Sequence record: OZ346205.1 | Source: a phage | Length of the DNA stretch: 64,000 nt | Strand: one strand, 5' to 3' | Shown here: piece by piece, positions 4,376 to 64,000 of the stretch | Position numbering within the stretch: position 1 is the first letter of the stretch | Layout of the letters: the number at the start of each line of letters is the position of its first letter | Position numbers and translations under genes: made by a program | Notes under the pieces: model-generated | What the model was told of the DNA's origin: nothing | Database searches by the model: none | The model's input: the letters and a program-made list of their open reading frames with translations, nothing else

Positions 4376-6799
4376 ATGAGTATGTGGTCTTTCGATTTTG
4401 AGTCATCCGGTTTGCTGGAAGACCCAGATCTTTATTATCACTGCGGTCTGTTTAAAGAGCTGAATAAGAACCGTTTTATGCTGTTCCTTCCTCTAAATGA
4501 CCGCACACACTACTCCGAGGAGGATATAGAAAAGGCTAAGAACTTCATTCTGTCAAAGAAAACTCTTTATAAAGATTTTGAAGTTCGCATAGCAGATTTT
4601 TCGGAGTTGGAAGGTTGGCTTACAGGCAATTCTGACTGGTCACCAACAGCTTTGAACTGCCATAACTGCTACAGTTATGACTTTATGCTAATGGAAAGAT
4701 TATCCGGTATTCATTTTGATATGTTCCGTGATCCTAAATGCATGGGGACTATCAACGACCACCAGGTTAACCTGTTTGATACGTTGGCTATGAGCCGAAT
4801 CTTGTGGCCTGATCGCCCTTTACCAAAAGGTTGTCCGGACGCTGTATTCAACCCGGTTACTAAGAAAATGCAACCTGTTGGTCCTCACGGCCTTATGGCA
4901 TGGGGCTACGCCCTTGGTAACCAGAAAGTTCAAATTGATGACTGGCGCGATCTTCCGTTGTGGAAGTATGTGGATCGTGTATTCGAGGACGTTATCATCC
5001 AGGAGCTGCTCTGGAAAGAGCTGGTAGCGGAATCAAAAGGTGTATTCTACGGCAAATCTGACATGCAGAACTTTATGTACGATCCAGCCAAAGAGAAGCC
5101 GAAAGGGTTCAAGAAGATCACCTGGAAGAACGCATTACGTCGAGGCATGCTGCAGCACTTCCTGATGGAGCTGCAGGCCCGTCAGGGTGTATACTTCGAC
5201 ATAGATGGAGCTATTGCTTTACGTGACCGTTGCGATGCGTGGATGAAAGAAATCGCTGATCGTGTTGAACCACAACTACCTTTAAAAGAGCTGTCAATGT
5301 CTCAGCGGCCCAAGTTCCCTGAAAAGCCGTTTAACCAAGACGGGACAATCTCTAATAATGGTTGGAAATGGTTAAAAGATAAGCTTGGCTATCCTGTAGA
5401 CATGAGTGCTTTAGAGTTCAAAGCCCCGCCTAAGCGAGCATTTACCTCTACAGGAGATGTCAGCAAGATGGGGATAAAATGGTGTGAAGAGATGGGCTGC
5501 AAAGACCCCGATAAGATGGCTGATTTCTTGAGAGGCTATATTAAGGGCACCTCCACACCACAACCCTTACCTAAAGAGCTGATGGATCAGGCAATAAGTG
5601 ATCTGCAGCAGAAGCGAATGCCTGACTGCAAGATACCTATGAAAATCAGCAATCAGGACGACATCAAGCGATACCTAATCAGTGCTGGTTGGCTCCCAAC
5701 AATGTGGAGAACTAAAGATGTAACTAAAGACAGCAAGAAGAAAGCTTTACCTGATGCAGATGTTGATGCACGAGTATATGCATATATGGACGAGCTTTTG
5801 GAGTCAGAGTATTGTGACCTAATTATCAACTTCTGGAACAAAACTGATGCTAAGTTCCAGACAACCGTGCACAAGTTCCGAAGCTTTCCTAACTCCGAAA
5901 GGATTAAAAAGGAAGTATTCGGGAAAATACGTAGAAAAGCCAGGGCACTTATTACTTCTCCGCAACTGAAAGATACGTTTGGACACCTATGCCCAAATCT
6001 TGAAAAATTGAACGGAGAGATGGCTAAAGATATCGTCTTGTGGTTATCATTGCGAAACCGCAGATCGGTCCTTGATCCAATCAAGGAGGATAAGGTTGAT
6101 ACTGGTCTTCTTAATCACCCACGTTTGAAGATTGACCATAAGCTTCCTGCTAAAAGCTCTGGATTAACAAACACTTCCAGACAGAAACACAGTATTTGTG
6201 CAAACATGCCTAAACCATCTCCTAAAGTGGTTATGGGTAAAGAGATGCGTAGTCTGTGGGGTGTTCCTCCGGGATACTTTGAGATCGGTATTGACGGGTC
6301 CAACTTAGAGCAGCTTATCGGGGCTTGGGGTGCCTTTGAGTTCGACAACGGCCTGTATTATGATGTTGTAAGTAACGGAGACGCACACCAAAACAATGCT
6401 GAGGCATATACAAAAGTGGCAGGCAGAGAGGTGTCCCGTAACGACGGTAAACCTATCACGTATGGGGTTATGTACGGGGCACAAAAAGATAAAGTTGCAG
6501 ATATGTTGGACATCTCCCCAGAGTTGGGACAAAGGGTAATCGATGCACTCTGGGATGCCAACCCAGGTCTTAAGGGGCGCAAAGAGGATCTGGAGAAATT
6601 CTGGGAAGCAACAGGTAAGAAGTTTATCTACTCTTTTGATGGTCATGCTATCTGGACCCGATCTAAACACTCTTTACTTAATGCATACCAACAAAATGGC
6701 GGTGCATCGTTGTGTGACTTAGTTGGAATACTCATGCACCACCAGATGGTGAAGCGTGGGTGGTACGATGAAGGTGTTCGTCGTATTATTTATTACCAT
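4376..6799 (+). CDS. DNA polymerase, family A (Pol I-like), exon 1
   Basis: 3'-5' exo motif FDFESSG; motif A IDGSNLEQ; motif B R..GKPITYGVMYG; frame ends ...RRIIYYH just before motif C. Confidence 0.8.
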
Positions 6800-7075
6800 A
6801 AATAACATTGTGGCTTCATAGAGTAATCTATGTCGAATAACCTCTTTAACTGCGGGAAGCCTAAACCTTATGGCAAGGTAATCCGCAACGAAGCGCTCAA
6901 AAGAGCGAACGCTCAGAGGCCATTCCGAAAGGAAGTAGACCAGCAAGTGCGGTCGAAATGGGAGGATTCCTGTGGTTGCTTATCATAGGAATATGAGATG
7001 GTCCGATCCTACGTGAAAACGTATGGCTATGCACGTAATGGTGCGGGGTAGCTTAACGACCTACCTGAACTATTG
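6800..7075 (+). mobile_element. group I intron (no ORF) splitting DNA polymerase motif C
   Basis: P-like ACTGCGGGAAGCC (6848), Q-like AATCCGCAACG (6880), S-like GAGATGGTCCG (6995); follows exonic U, ends in G; exon junction YYH|DE restores motif C. Confidence 0.65.
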
Positions 7076-56775: not shown

Positions 56776-56804
56776 TTGAAATTAACAAAACAGTTAGGTA
56801 TACT
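56776..56804 (+). promoter_or_regulatory. sigma70-like promoter in divergent region
   Basis: TTGAAA - 17 nt - TATACT. Confidence 0.5.
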
Positions 56805-57852: not shown

Positions 57853-58203
57853 ATGAAAGATGGGGATAAGCTGCTATATCTTAAAGTCCCCCTTGAAATA
57901 CTGTCTATGTCAAAAGTTTTGAATGACACAACTGGTGAGGTTGTTGTTCTTGACTTATATGACAAGATCGTATACTGCTACCTGCACAACTGGTATAAGC
58001 TTGGAGGAAATTCACGCTTCACGCCCAGCACAAGGAAAATTGCAGCAGATATTGGGATAAAGAAAACAAAAGCAGCAGCGTGCGTTAAAACTTTAGAATG
58101 TGCAGGAGTGGTTGAAATATCCACGCAAGGGAGAGGTAAAAGATGCACATTTTCCAAAGTTTTGCCACCAGAAGAAGTTATTCGAATGTCAACAACTGGT
58201 TAG
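57853..58203 (+). CDS. putative winged-helix DNA-binding protein
   Basis: HTH-like STRKIAADIGIKKTKAAACVKTLE; immediately upstream of a palindromic iteron array. Confidence 0.4.
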   Translation: MKDGDKLLYLKVPLEILSMSKVLNDTTGEVVVLDLYDKIVYCYLHNWYKLGGNSRFTPSTRKIAADIGIKKTKAAACVKTLECAGVVEISTQGRGKRCTFSKVLPPEEVIRMSTTG

Positions 58204-58277
58204 ACCAGTAAAAACTTAAATATCTGTACTATAAGGATTCGTATGTTTTATGTTCACTCTGGAACAGAGGTTAGTAA

Positions 58278-58360
58278 CTGTCCGTGATACGGACACTACT
58301 GTCCGTCACGCGGACACATCTGTCCGTAATACGGACACTAACTGTCCGTGATACGGACAC
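58278..58360. repeat. iteron array: 4 tandem palindromes TGTCCGT-N5-ACGGACA
   Basis: Copies start at 58278, 58299, 58320, 58342 (21-22 bp period); followed by an A/T-rich stretch and further inverted repeats to about 58470. Confidence 0.8.
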
Positions 58361-58499
58361 ATAAAGAATATAACTAAAATAACTAAATAATAAAAAAAAT
58401 AAAAGATCTAGTACTTATGGTACTAAGTACATATACTTAACTTATGTAGAATATACTAGATCCTAAGTACCATGTTTTAAATTTATTACTTACTATAGG

Positions 58500-58790
58500 T
58501 AGTGTCGGCCCTTCATTGGCACTCGCCTACGAGGGGGCGAGATGCCGGGCCTCCTTGGTGCACACAATAACAGAAGTGCATACATGAAGGTCTGTTAACA
58601 TGTGTGGGAGCGAAGCGATAGCGCAGGCCAAAGGCCGAGCACTGATGTGGACCACCGACGAAAGCTTGCCAGCGCCGTAAGGAGTCGGTTGAGAGTCTCC
58701 CGCGCGAGCTTGGATGAAGTTTATGTGTGGAAACGGACAAGAAGGCCCCTAAATCGCTCCACAGCTATATAAACTATACCAGGTAAGGCA
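58500..58790 (+). other. GC-rich structured non-coding island (candidate ncRNA or leader)
   Basis: No credible ORF; nested inverted repeats, e.g. CCTTCAT/ATGAAGG, GGCACTCGCC/GGCGAGATGCC, GGGAGCGA/TCGCTCC. Confidence 0.3.
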
Positions 58791-58866
58791 ATCGCACCAG
58801 TTTGATAGAAAAGCTCGTTACAAAGCGATACAGTGAGTTTTTCTATAACTTGAAGAGGAGGCAGCT

Positions 58867-59445
58867 ATGAGTCCACGCAAAGATGACCGTGAAAAGATTG
58901 CAAAACGTTATCAGAATGAAGAACAGATGGAGAAAACTTTCAAGTGGAAGCCAGGTTTCCAGCGTAATCATTCTAACGCTCGTGATCGTAAGCATCCGGA
59001 TAAGTGGTTAACACCGCCAAATGATGGCATGCAGGTTGGGGATGAGAAGGAGCTGTCACCTGGAAAAGATGGCAACTACATTCGCACTAAGGAAGCAGGT
59101 CCAAAGGATGACAGCTATCTTGTAGATAAGGTTCTTGACGGTGTTGATGTAGGTGTTGACACTGTACGAAACCTTTTTCTTGGTTGGTATCGCACAGGGT
59201 TTTTCGACATCAAGGCTATTCGTCGTGTTTGTGATATTAAAAAGTCTGCCTACGATGATGATTCCCTACATCGCACTCTGAGACAATACTCAGAGAGGTA
59301 CGGTCATCCAGTTATCACTCTTGACGATATTAACGAAGTTATGTATCATGTAGAGGTTGTTGCAGGTAGGTTCGGTGATGCATATCTCGGTATTCTTTCT
59401 GCAAAGGATGAGGTAATGTTAAATAAGATTTACTATGAACGCTGA
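58867..59445 (+). CDS. hypothetical protein
   Basis: GAGGAGG RBS; 192 aa. Confidence 0.55.
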   Translation: MSPRKDDREKIAKRYQNEEQMEKTFKWKPGFQRNHSNARDRKHPDKWLTPPNDGMQVGDEKELSPGKDGNYIRTKEAGPKDDSYLVDKVLDGVDVGVDTVRNLFLGWYRTGFFDIKAIRRVCDIKKSAYDDDSLHRTLRQYSERYGHPVITLDDINEVMYHVEVVAGRFGDAYLGILSAKDEVMLNKIYYER

Positions 59446-60742: not shown

Positions 60743-60817
60743 GCCCTGTTAGCTTAGTGGATAAAGCAGCGGCCTTCTAAGCCGTTGACACTGGTTCGAG
60801 TCCAGTACGGGGTGCCA
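60743..60817 (+). tRNA. tRNA-Arg (anticodon UCU)
   Basis: Cloverleaf by eye: acceptor GCCCTGT/ACGGGGT, anticodon loop CTTCTAA, T-loop TTCGAGT, encoded CCA. Confidence 0.8.
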
Positions 60818-60821
60818 AATT

Positions 60822-60908
60822 GGGGAGTTATCCCGTAGAGGTAGCGGTGTAGACTGTAAATCTATTGTCATTGCGACTCGGGTGGTTCGACTCCACCACT
60901 CCCCACCA
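60822..60908 (+). tRNA. tRNA-Tyr (anticodon GUA)
   Basis: Acceptor GGGGAGT/ACTCCCC, anticodon loop CTGTAAA, long variable arm, T-loop TTCGACT, CCA. Confidence 0.75.
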
Positions 60909-61022
60909 AATTTATATTTTTAGATGCATAAATAATACAGATAATGGCATTGATATTTATCGTCGTTTATACTAGTCACTAACTGCTCGAAAATCAGTGT
61001 CATTATCAGTATAATTTATAAA

Positions 61023-61113
61023 GGAGGGTAGGGAGCAATGGTGCTCAAGCGGTATTGAAAACCGTCCCGTTGAGGATGACTCGATGATGGTTCGATTCCA
61101 TTACTCTCCGCCA
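61023..61113 (+). tRNA. tRNA-Ser (anticodon UGA)
   Basis: Acceptor GGAGGGT/ACTCTCC, anticodon loop ATTGAAA, long variable arm, T-loop TTCGATT, CCA. Confidence 0.65.
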
Positions 61114-61211
61114 CATTGTTGACCTTGTAATTAAGCGAAAGCCGGAAGCAGAACCGGATTATCAAATGTTACAGTCGTCATCGCCGACTAGCAACATGGT
61201 CAACATACTGA

Positions 61212-61310
61212 GCTAGGTAAGCCCTTTGGCAAGGGCGAGGATTTTTAATCCTGAAAATAGACGAGGTAGTCGTTGAATACATAGGTGGTTCGATTCCATC
61301 ACCTAGCACC
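61212..61310 (+). tRNA. atypical tRNA-like gene (99 nt; anticodon loop TTTTTAA, UUU?)
   Basis: Acceptor GCTAGGT/ACCTAGC, D-arm GCCC...GGGC, T-arm GGTGG-TTCGATT-CCATC, but 30-nt extra region and imperfect anticodon stem. Confidence 0.4.
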
Positions 61311-61315
61311 TTTTT

Positions 61316-61391
61316 GCTGATGTAGCACAATCGGTAGTGCAATTGATTTGTAATCAATAGGTTGTAGGTTCAAGTCCTGCCATCAGCACCA
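61316..61391 (+). tRNA. tRNA-Thr (anticodon UGU)
   Basis: Acceptor GCTGATG/CATCAGC, anticodon arm ATTGA-TTTGTAA-TCAAT, CCA. Confidence 0.8.
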
Positions 61392-61392
61392 A

Positions 61393-61467
61393 GGCCCTGT
61401 AGCTGGAAGGTTCAAGCAAGCGACTCATAATCGCCAGACGGTGGTTCAATTCCACCCAGGGCCACCA
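61393..61467 (+). tRNA. tRNA-Met (anticodon CAU; could be Ile-lysidine type)
   Basis: Acceptor GGCCCTG/CAGGGCC, anticodon loop CTCATAA, T-loop TTCAATT, CCA. Confidence 0.75.
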
Positions 61468-61478
61468 AATAGTAAATA

Positions 61479-61555
61479 CTCCGCGTAGCTCAGCTTGGTA
61501 GAGCGCCTGATTTGGGATCAGGAGGTCGAGTGTTCGAATCACTCCGTGGAGACCA
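61479..61555 (+). tRNA. tRNA-Pro (anticodon UGG)
   Basis: Acceptor CTCCGCG/CGTGGAG, D-arm GCTC...GAGC, anticodon arm CCTGA-TTTGGGA-TCAGG, T-loop TTCGAAT, CCA. Confidence 0.8.
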
Positions 61556-62375: not shown

Positions 62376-62659
62376 GAGTTGCTACACTGTTTATTGTGTG
62401 CTTGTTATTATGTGGGTGTGCAACCAGCGTTGAGAGAGAATACAAGATTGACCCTCCTGATGTAGGAAGGTTGATTGTTAAACCCCCGGAAGGTGCCATG
62501 AAACCACCTGCTAAAGCTATGCCTTTGAAGAAAGGTGCGCCAGATGCAGTGAATTCTGGCATTATGAGGGATAATAATCTGTCTTGTAGCAATGATAGAG
62601 CTAAATTGATCATTTTGCAAGACTATATTAGAACACTTTTTCCAAAGGAGAGAGGTTAA
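62372..62659 (+). CDS. o-spanin-like outer-membrane lipoprotein (Rz1-like)
   Basis: Signal peptide with lipobox LLCGC, Pro-rich mature part; AGGAGG RBS. Confidence 0.55.
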   Translation: MRVATLFIVCLLLCGCATSVEREYKIDPPDVGRLIVKPPEGAMKPPAKAMPLKKGAPDAVNSGIMRDNNLSCSNDRAKLIILQDYIRTLFPKERG

Positions 62660-63084
62660 TGTCTAAGATTTACGGACCGTGTTCTGAAAAGCAGAAGATG
62701 ATCCTAGAAAACGATGCAGATATTTTGGTAATCGGCGGTGCCGCAGGGTCTGGCAAGTCGTTCCTCTTGCAATTGATGCCACTTAAAATTATTGATGACC
62801 CCCACAGCTCTGTGGTTATGTTCCGAAGAACAACCCCACAGTTGGAAGGTGAGGGTGGATTATGGCCTAAAGCAGTAGCTATTTATAGTGATCTGCCTGA
62901 AAACATTAAGCCAAAGTTTAGAGAGAAGGATCATAAGTTCATTTTTCCACGGTTTGATCCGAACACTGGCAAGTGGGATAGAAGCAAAAAGGGAGCTGTT
63001 GTAAAATACTGCCACATGGAGTATGTACAAGATAAGCTTAACCATCAGGGGCTTGAGTACACCATGGTTTGCTTCGATGAGGGT
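62659..63084 (+). CDS. terminase large subunit, exon 1 (ATPase N-terminus)
   Basis: Walker A VIGGAAGSGKSF; Walker B-like MVCFDEG at the exon end; frame interrupted by intron. Confidence 0.5.
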
Positions 63085-64000
63085 TAATTTGTAGCTCTCG
63101 TAAAACCTCCCTAATTGCGGGGAAATCTTTATTATTGACACCACCAACCTGTCATGGTAACATGACAGAGGCTTCGAAGAGAGATCGAAGGTATGGTAAC
63201 AGTGTGTTAATTTAGATAATCCGCAGCGAAGCATCCGAGAGGATGAACGTTCAACGACTAGTCGAAAGACGTAGAATCAAGCGATTCGAAACGGGAGGGT
63301 GAATGTGTAATACTAAGAAATGTATGGATTGCCAAAGAGTTCTACCTATTGATGATTTCTTTTTATCATCTAAGAGCAAGGATGGATACTCAGGTACATG
63401 CAAGGAATGCTATATGTACTACAGGAAGGGTGGATCTCGTAAAAACAAAAATATGGTTAAGAGAGATGATGCAGCATTGTTTATTCAAGACTTGCTGAAG
63501 AAAGGTGAACTTTTTGAATGCAAATCTTGTCATGAAAGTATGCTCGCTGATAGTTTTTACACAAAACGTGACTATGGTAAAGTATATCTGGTTACGAACA
63601 GGTGTAAGATGTGTGAAAAGTTTTATCAGATTGAGAAGAAATTTCACATAACAAAAGATGAATACTATCGTCTACTCTCAGATCAAGATCATAAGTGTGC
63701 CATTTGTAGAATATCCCTTGATGAGTATAGGACGCAAGGGTATAGAGATTTCTTTTGTGTTGATCATGACCATAAAACTGGTGCTGTAAGAGGGTTGCTT
63801 TGTGATAAATGCAACAGAGCTTTAGGTTTCTTCCAAGAGGATGAGGAAACTATTCTTAGAGCGGCAGAGTATTTACACATTCATAAGATATAGTCTGGTC
63901 TGCATGGAGACATGCAGCTGCCTGAAAATGGCGGGGCAAGACTAGCGACCTTGCCCGAACATAAACGACACAATTCGAATGGGAGCAGATAGACTACCTG
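63085..64000 (+). mobile_element. group I intron with homing-endonuclease ORF in terminase gene (3' end beyond window)
   Basis: P AATTGCGGGGAAATC (63113), Q AATCCGCAGCG (63228), R GTTCAACGACTAGTCG (63249), S AAGATATAGTCTGG (63884); ORF 63303..63893 lies between R and S. Confidence 0.65.
63303..63893 (+). CDS. intron-encoded endonuclease VII / HNH-family homing endonuclease
   Basis: CAIC...DHDHKTGAVRGLLCDKCN motif; N-terminal CxxC zinc-ribbon repeats; GGGAGGG RBS. Confidence 0.6.
   Translation: MCNTKKCMDCQRVLPIDDFFLSSKSKDGYSGTCKECYMYYRKGGSRKNKNMVKRDDAALFIQDLLKKGELFECKSCHESMLADSFYTKRDYGKVYLVTNRCKMCEKFYQIEKKFHITKDEYYRLLSDQDHKCAICRISLDEYRTQGYRDFFCVDHDHKTGAVRGLLCDKCNRALGFFQEDEETILRAAEYLHIHKI

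Follow-up and report, generated by a model that had tools for sequence, protein, structure and literature searches.

A palindrome array next to a winged-helix protein gene is a candidate replication origin of rV5-like coliphages

The 64,000-nt stretch of sequence record OZ346205.1 analyzed here (the window) belongs to the genome of an rV5-like coliphage (genus Vequintavirus, ~137 kb). It features a 663-bp non-coding gap (58204–58866), unannotated in annotated relatives, that carries an array of short palindromes proposed below to be the iterons of a replication origin. The 3 kb surrounding the array are 99.7% identical to Escherichia phages rV5_ev147 and slur16, and the ~120 database genomes that match this region all belong to Vequintavirus. 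The gap is preceded by a gene coding a 116-aa winged-helix protein, the proposed origin-binding protein (57853–58203, + strand), which relatives label “putative transcriptional regulator” or, in RefSeq, “replication initiation protein”. It is bounded downstream by a gene coding a 192-aa hypothetical protein (58867–59445, + strand; PHROG 12226, unknown function), followed by a tRNA cluster, the spanin genes and the large terminase gene. From left to right the gap is composed of 71 bp, the 86-bp array (58275–58360, 52% G+C), a 140-bp A/T-rich tract (58361–58500, 20% G+C), a 300-bp G+C-rich block (58501–58800, 55% G+C) and a further 66 bp. In rV5 coordinates the region 58.2–58.9 kb corresponds to about 64.7–65.3 kb. 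A few records mark the array, though simply as “repeat_region”. No sigma-70 promoter or intrinsic terminator is predicted within the gap, either in our scan of the coding strand or in the rV5 table (PMC3606486); promoter scans of this kind cover the sigma-70 type, phage-specific types falling outside them. The closest predicted promoter upstream is the sigma-70-type TTGAAA-17-TATACT (56776–56804, + strand), which corresponds to P081 of the rV5 paper (Table S4, PMC3606486). The gap is thus probably transcribed by read-through from P081.

The array is organized as four 22-nt direct repeats whose starts are 21, 21 and 22 bp apart, which is about two helical turns. Each unit contains a 17-bp palindrome, TGTCCGT-N3-ACGGACA (the same as TGTCCG-N5-CGGACA), positioned at 58279–58295, 58300–58316 (with one mismatch), 58321–58337 and 58343–58359. 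The first-pass annotation of this DNA had described the motif as TGTCCGT-N5-ACGGACA. Its four copies, their place and their 21/21/22 spacing are real, but the spacer is N3, and the literal N5 motif has no match even at 2 mismatches. Four matches to the correct motif are found in the window where 0.08 are expected, and none of 100 shuffles reaches this number. There is no further site at up to 2 mismatches in the 64-kb window or in the other ~73 kb of slur16, a 99.7%-identical genome, and isolated half-sites occur at background frequency only. A palindrome scan of IMG/VR yielded scattered single chance matches and no other arrays. The array is present in all 119–120 database genomes of the genus. 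Note that two short-read contigs from Logan (L009 and L014) break inside the array and that GenBank record MG065672.1 begins exactly at it; such ends are the assembly breaks expected at a short tandem repeat, not physical termini.

Sequence conservation across the gap was assessed as nucleotide diversity in 12 aligned genomes spanning the genus. Third codon positions of the two flanking genes have a diversity of 0.12–0.16, to be compared with 0.016–0.046 in the outer array copies, 0.047 in the A/T-rich tract and 0.065 in the G+C-rich block. Array diversity is 3–10 times below that of synonymous positions and the palindrome motif is under purifying selection. The comparison with related genomes that the earlier annotation had proposed as a check is informative also at the level of single positions. 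In 75 sites from 19 genomes, positions 1, 2, 4–6, 12–14, 16 and 17 are invariant (TGnCCG-N5-CGGnCA) across lineages whose proteins differ by 12%, whereas the spacer and the inner arm positions are variable. Copy number is 4 in most genomes, 2 in phage navn, 3 in V18, JES2013 and L232, and 6 in O157 typing phage 14. These changes involve whole units and always retain the 21–22 bp spacing. Iterons typically vary in number by whole units, which operators bound at promoters seldom do. The last 20 bp to the left of the array (58255–58274) are hypervariable among relatives, with a diversity of 0.35, two to three times the synonymous level, amid conserved surroundings; recombination or slippage at the edge of the array may have left this scar. 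Whole-unit copy changes and this hypervariable neighbour are also what a functionless tandem duplication generated by replication slippage could leave behind. Such an origin of the repeats is scarcely credible, however, for an array found throughout the genus, with cores invariant across lineages with 12% protein difference, with a diversity well under that of synonymous positions and with analogous arrays beside analogous proteins in other genera.

The variation within the palindrome arms is instructive. In 16 of the 75 sites a C at arm position 3 faces the A retained at position 15, so that pairing is lost without compensation, and in further sites C faces A at positions 7 and 11. In copy 2 of one lineage both innermost arm positions are altered, from T-A to C-G. 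Since arm changes are often uncompensated, the half-sites appear to evolve independently around an invariant TGnCCG core, a behaviour more in keeping with protein contacts to duplex DNA than with a hairpin. It is accordingly very unlikely that the palindromes act at the RNA level, as four mRNA hairpins engaged in processing, stability or attenuation. The probable transcription of a gap with no predicted terminator, the very strong folding of the array as a single strand (z = -8.0) and the paired change in copy 2 would suit that role. Strong folding is nevertheless automatic for any palindrome array; the uncompensated changes at positions 3, 7 and 11 speak against selected RNA stems, no U-tract follows the array, and the motif changes together with a DNA-binding protein, as described below.

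The product of the upstream gene was characterized by sequence, profile and fold. Its best PHROGs match is family 12838, “replication initiation protein” (3e-80), and all weaker matches are to families with this same annotation; weak matches to “O-like” PHROGs are obtained for the Seunavirus homologue only. The Pfam search identified DUF6945 (4.5e-6; 27.1 bits, just below the curated cut-off of 28) and HTH_36 (1.5e-5), and no match to Phage_rep_O. DUF6945 also matches 8 of 12 aligned relatives of the protein, with a best E-value of 1.7e-12. In sequence searches of the PDB the best match is 4RO3 (E 1.8e-6, residues 12–90). A family profile that includes the syntenic proteins of relatives extends this match to the whole domain (E 1e-12); the next matches, to MarR/SlyA, are limited to the winged-helix part and are seven orders of magnitude weaker (1e-5). 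The AlphaFold2 model, of moderate confidence (pLDDT 70), displays an N-terminal beta-hairpin followed by a winged helix-turn-helix. Foldseek again places 4ro3 first (E 8.7e-5, TM 0.60, 28–29% identity), ahead of the N-terminal domains of staphylococcal RepA proteins (4pql, 4pt7, 5kbj, which is a Rep-iteron complex, and 4pta; TM about 0.5, 19–24% identity over about 89 residues) and then LexA. The model thus indicates an N-terminal winged-helix domain with the RepA_N/DnaD-N fold. The statement of the earlier annotation that the array lies downstream of a winged-helix gene is borne out by Pfam, AlphaFold2 and Foldseek, the array beginning 72 bp past the stop codon. 4RO3 is the N-terminal domain of RepA from the Vibrio cholerae satellite PLE, a RepA_N-type initiator (Barth et al., NAR 2020, PMC7145576). 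Judged from sequence and predicted fold, the 116-aa protein is a stand-alone homologue of this DNA-binding domain. Its homologues in relatives have 105–143 aa. The protein is confined to the genus in tblastn searches against phages and in an index of 5.8 billion proteins, and a full HMMER scan of 1.84 billion representatives adds only weak relatives of DUF6945, HTH_36 and DnaD_N type.

A relation between this protein and the array is best seen where both differ. The 137-kb viral contig IMGVR_UViG_3300010279_000001 (L129; the same contig as L231) has the gene order of the window, with a phosphoesterase 88% identical and a downstream 192-aa protein 83% identical to their window counterparts; this 192-aa protein is confined to the genus. 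The slot of the 116-aa protein is occupied in L129 by a 143-aa winged-helix protein that is just 27% identical to it. The TGTCCGT palindrome is replaced there by four to five copies of GATACA-N4-TGTATC (2211–2340 of the contig), which are followed by an A-rich tract and then by the G+C-rich block, which L129 retains. Protein and motif have therefore been swapped together between close relatives. Related arrangements exist in sister genera. Mydovirus KB57 has a different small winged-helix gene (PHROG 8453) in a divergent promoter region, with TATTCC-N6-GGAATA three times beside it. The winged-helix protein of Seunavirus KE22 (PHROG 8102, “replication initiation protein”, 3e-36; 38% identical to the window protein over 48 residues) is accompanied by GCCTAnnCTCAAATTGATA, twice, 23 bp apart. 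In both phages the repeats adjoin an A-rich tract with GATC, where A+T is at its local maximum; the two tracts share “aaaaacaataaaacataagatct” and resemble “aaaaaaaataaaagatct” of the window. This co-change of protein and sites is drawn from synteny rather than from a protein tree because the searches found the genus cluster itself and weak winged-helix proteins only. Initiator-iteron pairs are expected to show just this combination of a protein and a repeat that are specific to the lineage with an A/T-rich element that is better conserved. Lambdoid phages present the same situation, their protein and sites differing pairwise. Protein and sites would thus form an exchangeable specificity cassette, in which the array very probably provides the cognate sites of the adjacent protein; this assignment is considerably more likely than the origin function discussed below.

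The A/T-rich stretch reported to follow the array directly was confirmed at 58361–58500, where A+T reaches 80%. At scales of 60, 100 and 140 nt no other part of the window or of the remaining genome is as rich in A+T; over 100 nt the A+T fraction of the tract is 0.82, whereas the highest values are 0.76 for other stretches of the window and 0.73 outside it. The tract contains GATC at 58405 and 58459, four GTAC in 57 bp, an A-run and nested inverted repeats. The latter include the GTAC-containing pair noticed in the earlier annotation, 58417–58427 with 58463–58473, and GATCTAGT/ACTAGATC at 58405–58412 with 58455–58462. Extrusion of a cruciform was considered and set aside, the single strand folding no better than shuffles (z = -1.4). 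On the minus strand, 58396–58408 (GATCTTTTATTTT) matches the E. coli oriC 13-mer consensus GATCTnTTnTTTT at every position and is the sole zero-mismatch occurrence on both strands of the 64 kb; this is a resemblance only, in a tract that is T-rich anyway. A T7-like promoter resemblance at 58484–58503 was dropped because that stretch varies among relatives. The tract can be taken, by composition only, as a candidate DNA-unwinding element. As side observations, GATC occurs 366 times in the 64 kb of the window, or 5.7 per kb, above the ~3.7 per kb expected from a rough base-composition estimate, and the phage encodes several DNA methyltransferases. The divergent-transcription gap of phAPEC8-like phages (phAPEC8_ev052, L121, 1360–1600) also has a very A/T-rich tract with several GATC and a dense GTAC cluster (gtacggagtacagtacttgagtacagagtac) that recalls the one at 58411–58467 of the window; no adjacent winged-helix gene was identified there.

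Taken with the array and the protein, this tract supports the interpretation of the gap 58204–58866 as an iteron-type replication origin whose origin-binding protein is the 116-aa protein, which is judged likely though far from assured. The features that define such origins are recognized here as phased repeated sites, an adjacent tract that is A/T-rich in composition and a neighbouring homologue of an initiator domain, whose pairing with the sites is deduced; the sites are moreover semi-palindromic and directly repeated, as is usual for RepA_N iterons. In the proposed mechanism, dimers of the protein would bind the four 17-bp palindromes, which their 21–22 bp spacing would align on one face of the helix. 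The nucleoprotein array would stress or bend the DNA and open the adjoining 140-bp A/T-rich tract. Helicase and primase would then be loaded by other phage replication proteins because the 116-aa protein is devoid of a recruiting C-terminal domain, and read-through transcription would perhaps help. The genome encodes DNA polymerase and helicases; a primase/helicase and a PIF1/RecD-like helicase were described in rV5 (PMC3606486). The resemblance to iteron origins or multi-site operators put forward in the first-pass annotation is thereby supported as regards the protein-array pairing and, with less certainty, the origin itself, through co-exchange, invariant cores, homology to 4RO3 and the A/T maximum.

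The array could alternatively be a transcriptional operator and nothing else, with the protein acting as repressor or roadblock on its own operon or on read-through into the downstream unknown ORFs, tRNAs, lysis and late genes. Many records do name the protein “putative transcriptional regulator”, and beyond 4RO3 its winged-helix part matches regulators of the MarR/SlyA/LexA/CodY type. The repeats of Mydovirus and Seunavirus immediately precede the winged-helix gene, in a divergent promoter region, and in the window, where the gap is probably transcribed from an upstream promoter, bound protein could block elongation. This explanation is nonetheless unlikely. The sites of the window are downstream of the gene, no sigma-70-like promoter overlaps or adjoins them, and the motif exists at a single locus in 2 to 6 copies next to the A/T maximum of the genome. 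Full-length homology, moreover, is to an initiator domain and not to a repressor family. An origin is favoured over a plain operator because of the co-exchange, the invariant cores, the unique motif, the initiator homology, the A/T maximum and the fact that no sigma-70 promoter is predicted there. Operator-like features would also be produced by an autoregulating initiator. Initiators often autoregulate via their iterons, and so the two functions are not mutually exclusive.

A number of observations weigh against an origin at this locus. The protein ends after the winged helix and has no counterpart of the C-terminal domain of RepA_N initiators. By sequence it is not a member of Pfam RepA_N (PF06970), with no match at E up to 1, and its DUF6945 score is the sub-threshold one given above. 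The same DNA-binding domain is shared by proteins other than initiators, one example being a fusion with a GIY-YIG nuclease. The repeats of the sister genera precede the winged-helix gene and could be a plain autoregulatory operator. DnaA boxes and IHF sites are not above background, with one-mismatch matches only. Host-factor sites of this kind are not obligatory in phage origins. Replication of large virulent myoviruses can proceed from more than one origin or by a recombination-dependent route. Since the array disrupts assemblies, with two metagenomic contigs ending within it, some of the copy numbers derived from short reads may be inaccurate or depend on the assembly. The cumulative GC-skew minimum of the window, at 56791, is 1.5 kb away and would suit an origin, but is confounded, as it is inseparable from a switch in transcription direction. 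Skew analysis of rV5 likewise placed no origin, all skew switches being attributed to transcription direction (PMC3606486).

The closest known system is that of PLE, whose RepA is a proven initiator: it binds a repeat of the PLE origin and is sufficient for replication from there during ICP1 infection (PMC7145576). RepA_N iterons are typically semi-palindromic direct repeats (PMC7145576). Common to PLE and the rV5-like locus are homology over the entire N-terminal DNA-binding and dimerization domain, directly repeated sites that each hold an inverted repeat, their position in a non-coding region and a mobile element of a Gram-negative host. The rV5-like protein differs in having 116 aa, no C-terminal domain and 28–29% identity to PLE RepA. 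The iteron sequences are unrelated, PLE is a satellite whereas rV5-like phages are 137-kb virulent myoviruses, and the function of the rV5-like locus is a predicted one. Note that PLE RepA itself has no BLASTP-level similarity to staphylococcal RepA and was placed in the family by structure, electrostatic profile and function, while the C-terminal domain of RepA_N proteins is genus-specific and may serve host-specific functions (PMC7145576). Staphylococcal RepA proteins are winged-helix dimers that bind semi-palindromic iterons (PMC7145576). Those of the multiresistance plasmids pSK41 and pTZ2162 (4pql, 4pt7, 4pta, 5kbj) are the second-best fold matches of the 116-aa protein, which differs from them by the missing Pfam RepA_N match and C-terminal domain. 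Origins of the pSK41/pTZ2162 type lie within the rep gene.

The layout of the gap also recalls two origins that are well known in general terms. The lambda origin has four dyad-symmetric sites of ~19 bp, about two helical turns apart, that are bound by dimers and lie beside an A/T-rich unwinding region. The O protein and its sites differ pairwise between related phages, and transcription through the origin aids its activation. The phased dyad sites directly beside an A/T-rich region are shared with the locus of the window. The lambda origin, however, is inside the O gene and the carboxyl terminus of O recruits the P-DnaB complex; the rV5-like array is outside the gene, 72 bp downstream of its stop codon, and the protein has no Phage_rep_O match. 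In staphylococcal pathogenicity islands (SaPI) the origin is immediately 3' of the initiator gene and short iterons stand next to an A/T-rich region, a layout similar to that of the rV5-like gap. SaPI iterons flank the A/T-rich region on both sides, unlike the single array found here, and the SaPI Rep is itself a helicase.

The G+C-rich block that follows the A/T-rich tract (58501–58800, + strand) is non-coding because its variable sites display no 3-nt periodicity (16/20/21), which disposes of a missed gene. Comparison of the gap with Rfam gave nothing at gathering thresholds and noise-level matches only at E up to 10. Folded as a single sequence, neither strand of the block reaches significance (z = -1.4 and -1.7), and RNAalifold within the genus had too little variation to work with (1 compensated pair). 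Two segments of the block recur, with 84–87% identity, in circular ~13.2–13.7-kb E. coli plasmids, three copies being found in the 39.6-kb p3RM10740, probably a trimer of the same element. The segments were also detected in metagenomic contigs of the same two kinds; a contig scan with an 18-mer of the block gave only chance matches in G+C-rich bacteria, contig L128 being also a chance match. Between phage and plasmid copies, 19 of 19 tested pairs in three conserved helices (58518–58527 with 58536–58546, 58650–58652 with 58695–58697 and 58654–58659 with 58684–58689) stay paired, 5 of them by compensatory change, a result reached by 0 of 500 shuffles; the signal comes from the plasmid comparison only and amounts to essentially one phage-plasmid divergence. 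G-U wobbles fall on the + strand, and the plasmid copies have a GUAA-to-GGAA loop change and UUCG loops, which suggests RNA. It is conceivable that the block is a structured RNA, or an element acting as a single strand, of a type not described before; it may serve replication (priming or control), packaging or gene expression.

The plasmid family comprises NZ_CP020521.1 (L126/L227; 13,689 bp, circular), NZ_CP035869.1, CP148565.1, NZ_CP178698.1, NZ_CP043822.1 and the metagenome contigs L228 and L230; its replicon is untyped. The plasmids code major capsid, tape-measure and baseplate proteins and may be mini-phages or satellites. Their copy of the block is within a 1.6-kb non-coding region together with iterons of their own (CGGTAAATATTTCCG five times and a 27-nt repeat three times) and repeated TGTGTGGG-plus-hairpin modules, upstream of the gene of a 303-aa HTH protein that matches initiator PHROGs only weakly. 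The whole gap could be viewed as a composite modular origin, in which the protein-iteron cassette is joined to a structured element of ~300 nt (58501–58800) shared with these plasmids. This extension of the origin hypothesis is quite doubtful. If true, the element would be a portable module for priming, replication control or packaging, and the plasmids would be mini-phages or satellites functionally tied to rV5-like phages.

Sharing of the block with plasmids that have capsid and tail genes and no annotated terminase, and that could therefore borrow the packaging signal of a helper, also touches on the possibility that the array is a pac site and the winged-helix protein the missing small terminase subunit of a headful-packaging phage. 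No small terminase is annotated beside the large terminase gene at 62659, which is preceded by the spanin genes. One GenBank record starts exactly at the array, and the genome is circularly permuted (PMC3606486). A packaging role is all the same highly improbable. Neither Pfam nor PHROGs assigns the protein to a terminase family, and by sequence, profile and fold it is of initiator type. The array is separated from the large terminase gene by 4.3 kb that contain unrelated genes and the tRNA cluster, record and contig ends at the array are accounted for by assembly, and the plasmids carry the G+C-rich block but not the palindromes.

Other features of the gap and of the window deserve mention. 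A hairpin with a 12-bp stem (ATAGAAAAGCTC / GAGTTTTTCTAT; 58805–58846, + strand), whose base pairs are retained in 10 of 10 aligned genomes, is just 5' of the ribosome-binding site of the 192-aa protein gene. A group I catalytic intron is identified above the Rfam gathering score at 6790–7025 (+ strand, 64.7 bits). The large terminase gene (62659–63893) appears split, and slur16 annotates two CDS; the intervening ORF (63303–63893) has cysteine/histidine-rich motifs read as HNH-like, an organization that points to the insertion of a mobile element, either an intron or a homing endonuclease. The tRNA cluster (60743–61552, + strand) has low scorers at 61212–61308 (35.5 bits) and 60824–60903 (29.9 bits). 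Relatives disagree on one low-scoring tRNA, which slur16 lists as undetermined (anticodon “atcc”) and RudolfGeigy as tRNA-Lys. Finally, a complete 137.6-kb rV5-like genome (CP057073.1, PLSDB) was deposited as a “plasmid” from an E. coli culture of cattle faeces, which may reflect a carrier state or contamination.

The rV5-like phages (Vequintavirinae) are among those most often isolated on E. coli and are used in O157 typing, in biocontrol and in therapy collections. Their replication origin was never located, the sole published attempt, by skew analysis, having been inconclusive (PMC3606486), and the literature search retrieved no paper that describes an origin or iterons in Vequintavirinae. 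The locus described here is the best candidate so far for this unmapped origin. It is an element of a known kind, whose less ordinary parts are the modular exchange of the cassette and the shared structured block. The candidate offers a handle on how 137-kb virulent phages start replication and could serve, in engineering and in reporter constructs, as a minimal replicon that depends on infection. It would extend RepA_N-type origin recognition, rare in Gram-negative systems, to large coliphages in the form of the N-terminal domain alone. Exchange of protein and iterons between close relatives provides a natural specificity swap, usable to test recognition rules. The structured G+C-rich block, found also in small capsid-encoding plasmids, may point to a connection, so far overlooked, of rV5-like phages with a family of small mobile elements.

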